From IMG/VR virus record IMGVR_UViG_2778261105_000011: DNA of 41,989 nucleotides; one strand, written 5' to 3'. The notes beneath the pieces are model-generated. The model had not been told where the DNA came from and did no database searches. It worked only from the letters and a program-made list of their open reading frames with translations. The stretch comes from a virus (lineage: Duplodnaviria; Heunggongvirae; Uroviricota; Caudoviricetes). A program made the translations under genes and the position numbers. Numbering within the stretch: position 1 is the stretch's first letter; each line of letters begins with the position of its first letter. Shown in pieces: positions 16,828 through 19,943 of the stretch.

Positions 16828-17012
16828 ACGCCACAATTCAAACGATACCAGAGCTTCTTATCCAGACACGAGGCAATCAGACCGAAGTGGCGAGGATACT
16901 TTCCTGCGCAAGAGGAACAGTGCTCAAGTACAACCGAGACAGCAAAGGCGAGCGTCACGTAATAGTTAACGGCGTCCTGATGGTCAAACAGGGCAAGAGG
17001 GGAAGACGATGA
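16824..17012 (+). CDS. ninH: NinH
   Basis: ...TIPELLIQTRGNQTEVARILSCARGTVLKY... parallels lambda NinH ...TIPDMLVEAYGNQTEVARRLKCSRGTVRKY... Confidence 0.75.
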   Translation: MNATIQTIPELLIQTRGNQTEVARILSCARGTVLKYNRDSKGERHVIVNGVLMVKQGKRGRR

Positions 17013-17632
17013 GACTCGAAAGCGTAGCTAAATTTCATTCGCCAAAAAGCCCGATGATGAGCGACTCACCACGGGCCACGGCTTCTGACTCTCTTTCCGG
17101 TACTGATGTGATGGCTGCTATGGGGATGGCGCAATCACAAGCCGGATTCGGAATGGCTGCATTCTGCGGTAAGCATGAACTCAGCCAGAACGACAAACAA
17201 AAGGCTATCAACTATCTGATGCAATTTGCACACAAGGTATCGGGGAAATACCGTGGTGTGGCAAAGCTTGAAGGAAATACTAAGGCAAAGGTACTGCAAG
17301 TTCTCGCAACATTCGCTTATGCGGATTATTGCCGTAGTGCCGCAACGCCGGGTGCAAGATGCAGAGATTGTCACGGTACAGGCCGTGCGGTTGATATAGC
17401 AAAAACAGAGCAGTGGGGGAGAGTTGTTGAGAAAGAATGCGGAAGATGCAAAGGTGTCGGCTATTCAAGGATGCCAGCAAGCGCCGCATATCGCGCTGTA
17501 ACGATGCTAATCCCAAACCTTACTCAACCCACCTGGTCACGCACTGTTAAGCCGCTGTATGACGCTCTGGTGGTGCAATGCCACAAAGAAGAGTCAATCG
17601 CAGACAACATTTTGAATGCGGTCACACGTTAG
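17009..17632 (+). CDS. Q: Q late-gene antiterminator (lambda Q)
   Basis: 207 aa translation is essentially identical to remembered lambda Q. Confidence 0.95.
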   Translation: MRLESVAKFHSPKSPMMSDSPRATASDSLSGTDVMAAMGMAQSQAGFGMAAFCGKHELSQNDKQKAINYLMQFAHKVSGKYRGVAKLEGNTKAKVLQVLATFAYADYCRSAATPGARCRDCHGTGRAVDIAKTEQWGRVVEKECGRCKGVGYSRMPASAAYRAVTMLIPNLTQPTWSRTVKPLYDALVVQCHKEESIADNILNAVTR

Positions 17633-17672: not shown

Positions 17673-17702
17673 TATTGACTTTTTGAATAAAGTTGGGTAA
17701 AT
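17673..17702 (+). promoter_or_regulatory. pR' late promoter with adjacent qut site (TTGACT ... TAAATT)
   Basis: Sequence TTGACTTTTTGAATAAAGTTGGGTAAATTTGAC is nearly identical to the lambda pR' region. Confidence 0.8.
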
Positions 17703-17845
17703 TTGACCAAACGATGGGTTAATTCGCTCGTTGTGGTAGTGAGATGAAAAGAGGCGGCGCTTACTACCGATTCCGCCTAGTTGGTCACTTCGACGCATCG
17801 TCTGGAACTCCAACCATCGCAGGCTGAGAGGTCTGTAAAATGCAA

Positions 17846-17902
17846 TCCCGAAACAGTTCGCAGGTAATAGTTAGAGCCTGCATAACGGTTTCGGGATTTT
17901 TT
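17846..17902 (+). terminator. tR' terminator (end of the 6S late leader RNA)
   Basis: Long hairpin TCCCGAAAC ... GTTTCGGGA followed by TTTTTT, as in lambda tR'. Confidence 0.8.
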
Positions 17903-18176
17903 ATATCTGTGTAACAGGTAAGAGCATTCTCCCTTATGGGGCTTGGCTTAAATGCACCGAGTGCTCTTATCGTTGTGGCAGCACAACGATAGTTTTCGTC
18001 AGAGTTGGCGACTTTGCGGTTTTTTAGAAACTGACCACAAAGATAAATGCAAACGATGATGTTGTTCTGATGGCGGCGTAATAGCCTGTAAGTCAGCAAG
18101 GTCTTCCGACTCCTTGTAAACAAATTCGGCGCACTGGCCCGGTGTGATTAATAATGGGCACACAACAGGTAAGAGC

Positions 18177-18230
18177 ATTGCGCGCCTGACGAGTCCATGA
18201 GGGACGAAACGCATTAGCGTCGCGCGGAGT
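18177..18230 (+). ncRNA. Candidate type I hammerhead ribozyme (self-cleaving RNA) in the late transcript leader
   Basis: Core CUGACGA (18186-18192), stem II GUCC/GGAC with 5 nt loop (18193-18205), GAA (18206-18208), stem III ACGC/GCGU with AUUA loop (18209-18220), C17 at 18221, and stem I 18181-18185 paired with 18222-18226 (CGCGC/GCGCG). Predicted cleavage after 18221. Confidence 0.7.
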
Positions 18231-18692
18231 ATCCCCAGCCGGGGAATAACTGGATACCAGGGGAGACAACCCTAAGCGCATTTACGAATGTGTTTAGGGC
18301 GTGGGTCGGCAATGACTCCCTGTGCAGCCGACATCTGGCCCGGCAACATACAGTGCTCTTTCCGTTGTGCTGAATTAAGCGAATACCGGAAGCAGAACCG
18401 GATCACCAAATGCGTACAGGCGTCATCGCCGCCCAGCAACAGCACAACCCAAACTGAGCCGTAGCCACTGACTATCCTGAATTCATCAGTGATAGTTATG
18501 CTGCGGCCTTCTACACATGACCTTCGTGAAAGCGGGTGGCAAGAGGTTGCACTAACAACCTCATGCCGTTTTGCCCGTGCATATCGGTCACGAACAAATC
18601 TGATTACTAAACACAGTAGCCTGGATTTGTTCTATCAGTAATCGACCTTATTCCTAATTAAATAGAGCAAATCCCCTTATTGGGGGTAAGAC

Positions 18693-19016
18693 ATGAAGAT
18701 GCCAGAAAAACATGACCTGTTAGCCGCCATTCTCGCGGCAAAGGAACAAGGCATCGGGGCAATCCTTGCGTTTGCAATGGCGTACCTTCGCGGCAGATAT
18801 AATGGCGGTGCGTTTACAAAAACAGTAATCGACGCAACGATGTGCGCCATTATCGCCTGGTTCATTCGTGACCTTCTCGACTTCGCCGGACTAAGTAGCA
18901 ATCTCGCTTATATAACGAGCGTGTTTATCGGCTACATCGGTACTGACTCGATTGGTTCGCTTATCAAACGCTTCGCTGCTAAAAAAGCCGGAGTAGAAGA
19001 TGGTGGAAATCAATAA
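18693..19016 (+). CDS. S: Holin S (lambda S105/S107)
   Basis: 107 aa translation essentially identical to lambda S including the dual start MKMPEK. Confidence 0.95.
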
Positions 19017-19476
19017 TCAACGTAAGGCGTTCCTCGATATGCTGGCGTGGTCAGAGGGGACAGATAACGGACGTCAGAAAACCAGAAATCATGGTTATGA
19101 CGTCATTGTTGGCGGAGAGCTATTTACTGATTACTCCGATCACCCTCGCAAACTTGTCACGCTAAACCCCAAACTCAAATCAACAGCAGCCGGACGTTAC
19201 CAGCTTCTTTCCCGTTGGTGGGATGCCTATCGTAAGCAGCTTGGCCTGAAAGACTTCTCTCCCAAAAGCCAGGACGCTGTGGCATTGCAGCAGATTAAAG
19301 AGCGTGGCGCTTTACCGATGATTGATCGCGGTGATATCCGTCAGGCTATCGACCGTTGCAGCAATATCTGGGCTTCACTGCCGGGGGCTGGTTATGGTCA
19401 GTTCGAGCATAAGGCTGATAGCCTGATTGCAAAATTCAAAGAAGCTGGCGGAACGGTCAGAGAGATTGAGGTATGA
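19000..19476 (+). CDS. R: Endolysin R (lambda lytic transglycosylase)
   Basis: 158 aa translation near-identical to lambda R. Confidence 0.95.
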
Positions 19477-19943
19477 GCAGAGTAACCGCGATTATCTCCG
19501 CTCTGGTTATCTGCATCATCGTCTGCCTGTCATGGGCGGTCAATCATTACCGTGATAACGCCATCGCCTACAAAGAGCAGCGAGATAAAAAAGTCAGTGA
19601 GCTGAAGCAGGCGACCGCCACCATTACTGACATGCAGCAACGCCAGCGTGCTGCTGATGTACTCGATGCTAAATACACGAAGGAGTTAGCTGATGCGAAA
19701 GCTGAAAATGATGCTCTTCGTCGCAAGCTTGATAATGGTGGCAGGGTGCTCGTCAAAGGAAAATGCCCTGTGCCATCCTCAGCCGAAACCTCCGGCGCCT
19801 CCGGCATGGGCAATGATGCCACCGTCGAACTCTCTCCAGTTGCTGGACGAAACGTTCTCGGTGTCCGGGACGGAATTATCCGCGACCAAACAGCACTGAG
19901 AACGCTTCAGGAATACATCAGGACGCAATGCCTTCGGCGATAG
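19473..19943 (+). CDS. Rz: Rz spanin (i-spanin)
   Basis: N-terminal transmembrane segment and coiled-coil; N-terminal half near-identical to lambda Rz, C-terminal half diverged. Confidence 0.9.
19693..19899 (+). CDS. Rz1: Rz1 outer-membrane lipoprotein spanin (o-spanin), embedded in the +1 frame of Rz
   Basis: Signal sequence with lipobox ...VAGC..., proline-rich mature part; same embedded arrangement as lambda Rz1. Confidence 0.7.

Follow-up and report, generated by a model that had tools for sequence, protein, structure and literature searches.

On comparative sequence evidence, the hammerhead ribozyme motif in the late leader of this prophage does not stand alone but is fused with a 125-nt double-pseudoknot domain, the two forming a composite RNA (~170 nt) whose 5′ arm is the hammerhead. 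We regard the whole unit as most likely being a non-coding RNA cassette that processes itself and moves horizontally. The analysis covers a 41,989-nt stretch of Caudoviricetes DNA (IMG/VR record IMGVR_UViG_2778261105_000011; hereafter the window) and follows up an initial annotation that had reported a type I hammerhead and taken it for a site, standing on its own, at which the lysis mRNA might be processed or regulated.

The window is a lambdoid prophage which combines a P22-type immI/ant immunity region, including the sar antisense RNA (RF00262; 37019-37085, minus strand; Rfam, 71.6 bits, E = 4e-13), with a late region of the lambda type. On the plus strand, Q (17009-17632) is followed by holin S (18693-19016), R (19000-19476) and Rz (19473-19943). 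The late promoter pR′ (TTGACT, 17 nt, TAAATT; 17675-17703, plus strand) was located by a promoter scan and by near-identity to the pR′ region of lambda; its −35 element starts at 17675 and its −10 element ends at 17703, and it reads through the hammerhead unit, in agreement with the initial assignment of the motif to the strand transcribed from pR′. The tR′ terminator, which forms the 3′ end of the 6S RNA, aligns with that of lambda at 17845-17907 (plus strand), and the alignment and gene map together bear out the position of the motif between tR′ and holin S. As the element lies downstream of tR′, it would be made only by Q-antiterminated or read-through transcripts.

The leader between Q and S is 1060 nt long and, apart from one replaced segment, ~97% identical to that of lambda in our alignment. 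This segment comprises 422 nt (17929-18350) and stands in place of the 39-nt lambda loop that is flanked by GGTAAGAGCATT and CAGTGCTCTTTCCGTTGTG. Alignment of the two leaders confirms that lambda is devoid of an equivalent element. The initial annotation gave about 40 nt of the lambda leader as replaced; the replacement is 422 nt and is not the hammerhead alone, and the segment also houses a tmRNA-like module. E. coli CH4794 (NZ_CM166349, hit H58) has an HNH endonuclease gene inside its copy of the Q-S leader, a further sign of an insertion hot spot. We also observed, 3′ of the unit at 18369-18420 (plus strand), a hairpin of the form CCGG(N8-9)CCGG followed by (U/C)CACCA, which is common to lambda-type leaders and virulent phages (lambda, L003, L027, L028, L035) and is reminiscent of a minihelix carrying an ACCA tail.

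The motif itself occupies 18181-18226 of the plus strand. The span of 18177-18230 given previously does contain it and is a few bases too wide. Stem I (5 bp) pairs CGCGC at 18181-18185 with GCGCG at 18222-18226, and encloses the core C3-A9 (CUGACGA, 18186-18192), stem II (GUCC-AUGAG-GGAC, 18193-18205, 4 bp with the G10.1-C11.1 pair), G12A13A14 (18206-18208), stem III (ACGC-AUUA-GCGU, 18209-18220, 4 bp with the A15.1-U16.1 pair) and C17 at 18221. All of the sequence and structure features that define a hammerhead are found here, among them the published list of invariant positions C3 U4 G5 A6 N7 G8 A9, G12 A13 A14, A15.1, U16.1 and H17 (PMC3088659), and the three core-adjacent pairs G1.1-C2.1, G10.1-C11.1 and A15.1-U16.1 are intact. 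Stem I is open to the flanks and loops cap stems II and III, which is the type I topology. The claims of a complete invariant core in a canonical type I hammerhead and of a predicted cleavage site after C18221 thus stand, C17 being position 18221.

A strict type I descriptor finds this single site when both strands of the window are searched, and finds none in 300 dinucleotide-preserving shuffles of the window; a loose version of the descriptor gives 0.01 matches per shuffled window. The three-way junction is the minimum-free-energy (MFE) fold both of the motif alone and within 18160-18370. Together with the compensatory changes described below, these observations indicate that the motif is very probably a genuine self-cutting hammerhead RNA.

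The Rfam type I model (Hammerhead_1, RF00163) scores the site at 24.7 bits (E = 4e-4 in a 201-nt search, 1.7e-3 in 851 nt), below its gathering score of 34 bits, and nothing is reported in the window at curated thresholds, which explains why the motif is unannotated. Locus L001 reaches 28.7 bits, and none of 14 related loci attains 34. The deficit arises because the model mis-pairs stem I: its alignment to the window flags three non-standard pairs on each stem I strand. By the initial annotation, the lack of a covariance hit above threshold would count against the motif; such a hit is formally lacking for Rfam, but the result is misleading, as the core and helices are present and covary. A gathering score is a detection threshold and not a biochemical definition.

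Loop II varies freely among family members (AUGAG, ACACG, AUACG, UGAAAU, GCA), and is not conserved, and the family sequences give no evident sign of the tertiary contact between stem I and loop II that fast natural hammerheads have. The junction of the end of stem I with helices P1 and Px of the adjoining domain could substitute for this contact. For a minimal hammerhead with a 5-bp stem I and no evident tertiary contact, the rate at cellular Mg2+ is uncertain.

The family was retrieved with an 18-nt string located 3′ of the hammerhead and outside it. This yielded 23 distinct members from IMG/VR, metagenomes and GenBank phages, 19 of them in the arrangement of the window (Form A) and four in a permuted arrangement (Form B). 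The full hammerhead core is present in 21 of 21 distinct upstream sequences, where the anchor was the 5′ part of the domain only. Variation in the core is limited to N7 (C in 9, U in 8, A in 3) and position 17 (C in 12, A in 8, never G); these are the positions that working hammerheads let vary, which points to selection on catalysis. Stem II shows changes on both sides at two pairs and stem III at one, with stem swaps such as those from GUCC/GGAC to GUCUU/AAGAC and from ACGC/GCGU to AUAC/GUGU. Stem I is constant in Form A; in the Form B locus L131 the 1.1-2.1 pair is U-A instead of G-C. One sequence, L006, is altered in stems I and II and retains the complete core. In 1.18 Mb of phage loci the strict hammerhead descriptor matched 31 sites, and all 31 are homologues of the window site and followed by the domain, which leaves no false positives. 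Judged from these alignments, the hammerhead is maintained under selection with type I connectivity. With this constant fusion the stand-alone site proposed initially, in which the 125-nt partner had been missed, is not supported.

The domain (18222-18347, plus strand), as defined by an alignment of 19 sequences (A2), pair counts and a covariance model, starts exactly at the predicted hammerhead cut. It comprises P1 (18229-34/18252-57), Px (18238-43/18339-44), P3 (18260-67/18314-21), the P4 hairpin (18270-99) and P5 (18305-10/18327-32), all on the plus strand. Px crosses P1 in one H-type pseudoknot and P5 crosses P3 in another, and the helix order P1-Px-P1′-P3-P4-P5-P3′-P5′-Px′ places the two side by side. 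With hammerhead stems I-III included, the model has eight helices and 51 pairs; 99.0% of the alignment cells are paired and 19 pairs are changed on both sides. None of 500 column shuffles equalled this pairing, and sliding the partners by 1-3 columns left just 33-47% of cells paired. The joining strands GGAAUAACU, CGUGG, UGCA and CAAC are invariant, P1 also never varies, and the first 14 nt of the domain (GCGCGGAGUAUCCC) are identical across all 19 sequences of Form A.

A covariance model trained on 10 family members from other phages, outside E. coli, recovers 18178-18351 with a score of 196 bits (E = 3e-62), the sole copy in the window. No extra or hammerhead-less copies of the domain were found elsewhere in the window or in 860 kb of loci sharing the tmRNA-like module. 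Invariant G-U pairs (19 of 19 sequences at the base of P3) make the fold strand-specific, a feature of plus-strand RNA. A palindrome or recombination site at the DNA level was rejected on the same grounds, as these pairs become C-A mismatches on the opposite strand.

The identity of the domain was also searched among known RNAs. No Rfam 15 family fits it at E ≤ 10 in a search of 17850-18700. An HDV-like or theta ribozyme was rejected, having no Rfam match at E ≤ 10 and a topology that is not of the nested HDV type (P1-P1.1-P2-P3-P4). The resemblance of GGGGAAUAACUGGAUACCAG to the 5′ end of tmRNA suggested a tRNA-like or acceptor piece of tmRNA; this too was discarded, and 18222-18347 contains no T-loop, CCA, G3:U70 or tmRNA model match. 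We further considered the "drum" RNA motif as a ribozyme-associated candidate. It has no Rfam match here, and its source paper (PMC5737381) describes something else.

In enterobacterial copies, hammerhead and domain are seated in the loop of a further helix, P0. In the window its 5′ strand (CACAACAGGUAAGAGCAUU, 18161-18179, plus strand) pairs with 18352-18369 (AGUGCUCUUUCCGUUGUG, plus strand) in the MFE fold; the 3′ strand is additionally supported by the lambda alignment and by covariation. P0 covaries in other phages, with CAUAGUAAUGAGAAUAUU/AGUAUUCUCUUUACUAUG in locus L132, and the lambda late leader has the P0 helix closed by its 39-nt loop (L023, ~990-1065). The window contains a first P0-type hairpin at 17908-17978 (plus strand; 5′ strand 17908-28, 31-nt loop 17929-59, 3′ strand 17960-78), which marks the 5′ edge of the 422-nt replacement. 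Separately, a terminator-like hairpin at 17967-17992 (plus strand), AUCGUUGUG-GCAG-CACAACGAU followed by AGUUUUCGU, is built from the 3′ strand of this first copy and the sequence just 5′ of the tmRNA-like module, and could compete with P0. In other phages more than 20 unrelated inserts, 31-172 nt long, occupy the P0 slot, and several resemble tRNAs in having GGUUCGAAUCC T-arms. The slot has the appearance of a stem at which interchangeable small RNAs are docked or processed; processing by RNase III would be our guess.

Form B, a circular permutation of the RNA, occurs at four metagenomic or IMG/VR loci (L015, L131, L141, L143). Its order is P4(3′ strand)-CGUGGG-P5-P3′-P5′-Px′-linker-hammerhead-GCGCGGA-P1-Px-P1′-P3-P4(5′ strand), so that the hammerhead is internal and the ends lie within a long P4+P3 terminal stem of ~13-19 bp in MFE folds. 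A cap, in one case a small hairpin, takes the position of P0. All Form B helices are complementary though their sequences differ, and both permutations retain the stem I/P1/Px junction and every helix. The existence of two natural connectivities of one fold suggests that what is selected is the three-dimensional assembly, hammerhead included.

The tmRNA-like module that shares the replaced segment (17988-18163, plus strand) was recognized by weak Rfam matches of 26 and 17 bits to tmRNA models (tmRNA_permuted, beta_tmRNA), tag variants and pseudoknots, and is independent of the hammerhead unit, of which it is no part. Its tag reading frame, ANDDVVLMAA* (18049-18081, plus strand), is of the resume-codon type (GCA AAC GAU ... 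UAA) with the stop codon inside a hairpin, and two pseudoknots follow at 18098-18129 and 18137-18163 (plus strand), the first of which covaries. A tag frame with a hydrophobic ...LAA-type tail and pseudoknots behind it is what a tmRNA would have, and among related loci (98 of 100) the frame always has 10 codons, in 11 variants of the pattern AN[DE][DEQ]xxL[AM][AV]A. The tRNA-like domain of a tmRNA (acceptor stem, T-arm, 3′ CCA) was not found for the module: a T-arm with CCA is absent within −700 to +1500 nt in 82 of 100 loci, and the 5′ flank is not conserved. A canonical tmRNA was rejected, as ARAGORN calls none in the window or in 145 loci. Phages of Klebsiella (Webervirus), Escherichia, Salmonella and Erwinia, virulent ones included, and N4-like phages widely carry the module, and in locus L004 it has its own sigma-70 promoter. 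Phage tmRNAs are already known; we found no description in the literature of a tag module that has no tRNA-like domain.

The hammerhead unit is rare, being present in 15 of 5426 complete E. coli genomes and 4 of 50,697 GenBank phage records; E. coli CFSAN018748 and EC6622 contain the locus in full. A GTDB scan of ~100,000 species-representative genomes returned four chance matches only and no unit. It is unannotated at every occurrence, and its orientation matches that of the flanking genes or tRNAs in every case. In E. coli lambdoid late leaders it sits just 3′ of tR′-type terminators, with or without the tmRNA-like module. Another E. coli prophage carries it between the portal and Gp49 genes. 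In the T7-like Enterobacter phage SDFMU_EhYP (OQ884031, L001; Autographiviridae) it separates the capsid region from tail tubular protein A; there, a ~200-bp cassette at 2500-2700 composed of hammerhead and domain with the P0 flanks included is 95% identical to the E. coli lambdoid prophage copies. Such identity across unrelated phage types argues for recent transfer.

Transfer RNA genes lie near the unit in nine loci. Four of these units are inside dense tRNA arrays (L014, L019/L128, L140), where the upstream tRNA is 13 nt from the unit and the next tRNA begins 3-4 nt after the domain; the metagenomic contigs that bear arrays reach ~150 kb and some are IMG/VR viral contigs. In Pectobacterium and Dickeya phages a tRNA-Met is directly 3′ of the unit. 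The Form B copy at L131 lies 5′ of a tRNA and ~80 nt 3′ of the rtcB ligase gene of a phage (Pfam RtcB, E = 1.7e-118).

Based on these observations, we consider it, on balance, somewhat probable that the purpose of the hammerhead is the autonomous maturation of the RNA attached to it. Once Q-modified RNA polymerase had passed tR′, the hammerhead would fold in the nascent pR′ transcript. Hammerhead cleavage yields a 2′,3′-cyclic phosphate and a 5′-OH. The predicted cut of the window hammerhead at 18221/18222 would accordingly leave the cyclic phosphate on the upstream piece, after C18221, and the 5′-OH on G18222, with which the domain begins. The ribozyme would in this way set a defined 5′ end of the domain in any transcript in which the cassette had landed, doing for a non-tRNA domain what RNase P does for the neighbouring tRNAs. 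A cassette that carries its own device for forming a 5′ end can work in any transcript. Cleavage, the maturation role and the domain as functional product are what we infer from conservation and context, and "maturation of a functional RNA" should be read in this sense, as an interpretation of sequence comparisons. In the prophage, detachment of the late leader from the mRNA for lysis and morphogenesis would be a side effect and not the purpose.

The closed architectures qualify this picture. In the P0-closed or permuted form the pieces should stay base-paired, so a cut would not physically release the domain. According to the structural models, the biologically relevant product may be the nicked complex, and "nicking" fits the closed architectures at least as well as "release".

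The alternative closest to the original proposal is that the hammerhead processes or regulates the late mRNA, separating the 6S/tR′ leader from S-R-Rz and altering stability or translation. The motif does lie 3′ of tR′ and 5′ of S, on the strand read from pR′, which favours this reading, and 10 of 15 distinct lambdoid copies lie in late leaders directly 3′ of the terminator. Cleavage would leave a 26-kb late RNA with a structured 5′-OH end. In E. coli, a structured 5′-OH end could slow the 5′-end-dependent decay initiated by RNase E. However, the unit is found at 79-95% identity in T7-like structural genes, tRNA arrays and the portal/Gp49 region, and its occurrence in settings that have no lysis genes argues against a lysis-specific role; the lysis-mRNA function originally suggested for it is not upheld. 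Lambda and most of its relatives manage without the unit, as its rarity among E. coli genomes shows, and the reading leaves the 125-nt invariant partner unexplained. We therefore consider it unlikely.

The partner takes the central place if the hammerhead is an allosteric "aptazyme", in which the domain senses a metabolite, ion, protein or tRNA and switches cleavage through stem I. The domain does look like a riboswitch, with invariant joining strands, two pseudoknots and helices of variable sequence; it meets stem I through an invariant GA and the invariant P1, its linkage to a hammerhead is obligatory, and the stem I/P1/Px junction is preserved in the circular permutations. We know of no natural hammerhead riboswitch. 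We saw no conserved alternative helix that would break up the hammerhead; the genomic contexts have no common gene class for control by a single ligand; and the members in tRNA arrays have nothing downstream to regulate. Gated cleavage is thus quite unlikely in our view, and so, to the same degree, is the bolder version in which the domain is a new functional RNA class that senses a cellular signal and gates the hammerhead, the P0 slot carrying the two as a mobile cassette. If true, the gated unit would be the first natural allosteric hammerhead, and the P0 slot would belong to a modular locus for phage RNAs, hitherto unrecognised, with the tmRNA-like tag RNA as another of its products.

A third possibility makes the nick itself the product: the 2′,3′-cyclic phosphate and 5′-OH, held together, would mimic a nuclease-nicked tRNA and engage, induce or decoy the RNA repair of the host or RNA nucleases that act against phages (RtcB/RtcR-type). 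P0-closed Form A and Form B, closed by the P4+P3 stem, would indeed give an equal nicked and non-dissociating product, tRNA genes are frequent neighbours, and one Form B copy is next to phage rtcB. Yet this adjacency occurs at one locus only, and close phage RtcB relatives (79-90% identity) occur without the RNA; a general link to RtcB ligases was rejected for these reasons. In addition, the domain is free of tRNA-like features (T-loop, CCA), and the closing helix is absent in the tRNA-array members, in which the hammerhead piece should fall off. We judge this mimicry very unlikely. That the motif is a chance resemblance or an inactive, decaying relic, to which the score below the Rfam gathering threshold and the two stem mutations in L006 might point, is extremely unlikely and effectively refuted by the comparative data, namely the empty shuffles and a core that is invariant in 21 distinct, otherwise divergent sequences with compensated stems II and III.

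Autonomous maturation of the attached RNA remains our preferred reading. Hammerheads are abundant in prophages and their role there is largely unclear. Here one is found in an E. coli lambda-type prophage, the most tractable phage system, with the pR′ promoter, an inducer and easy genetics, and its conserved, covarying partner domain is undescribed by databases; whether the RNA cuts, what the product is and what binds it are directly testable questions. At the curated cut-offs of Rfam, an entire lineage of phage hammerheads goes undetected. The lambda late leader itself contains a conserved helix, into which different phages dock very different small structured RNAs.

Among known systems, the hammerhead (types I-III) and twister families each include natural circular permutations of one fold. 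Here the ends shift between P0 and P4 of the entire assembly, beyond the three hammerhead stems. A parallel to the proposed function comes from engineered guide RNAs and tRNAs processed by a 5′ hammerhead, in which the 3′ strand of stem I is formed by the first bases of the cargo. Such fusions give an exact 5′-OH end of the cargo, independent of promoter context. Those constructs are synthetic, whereas the present arrangement is natural and has an invariant cargo start.

The topology is that of RF00163 type I, and GUCC...GGAC and ACGC...GCGU of the window are near-exact to stems II and III of the model; stem I, in contrast, is shorter and of other sequence, with no evident bulge contacting loop II, and the host is a phage. 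Theta ribozymes, minimal HDV-like ribozymes proposed to substitute for host RNases in forming RNA ends, are likewise small self-cleaving RNAs within phage tRNA arrays, though of a different class (PMC10879173). They cut the 3′ end of a tRNA, whereas a hammerhead of the window type is predicted to cut the 5′ end of a non-tRNA domain and, unlike theta, would leave a ~60-nt trailer on any upstream tRNA.

Another precedent is the survey of Perreault et al. 2011 (PMC3088659), who described bacterial hammerheads in intergenic regions of phages and prophages and proposed that they cut long phage RNAs; E. coli, lambda and enterobacteria are unmentioned there, and we found nothing specific in the literature on hammerheads in lambdoid late leaders or on an association of phage hammerheads with tRNA arrays. 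The window hammerhead has in common with theirs the consensus core and an intergenic location in polycistronic phage transcripts. Their set included the first natural type II hammerheads and several that flank genes, in contrast to the single type I hammerhead fused to a domain that we find here. The window hammerhead thus belongs among the prophage hammerheads, and what sets it apart is its obligatory, hitherto undescribed double-pseudoknot domain and the natural permutations of the two.
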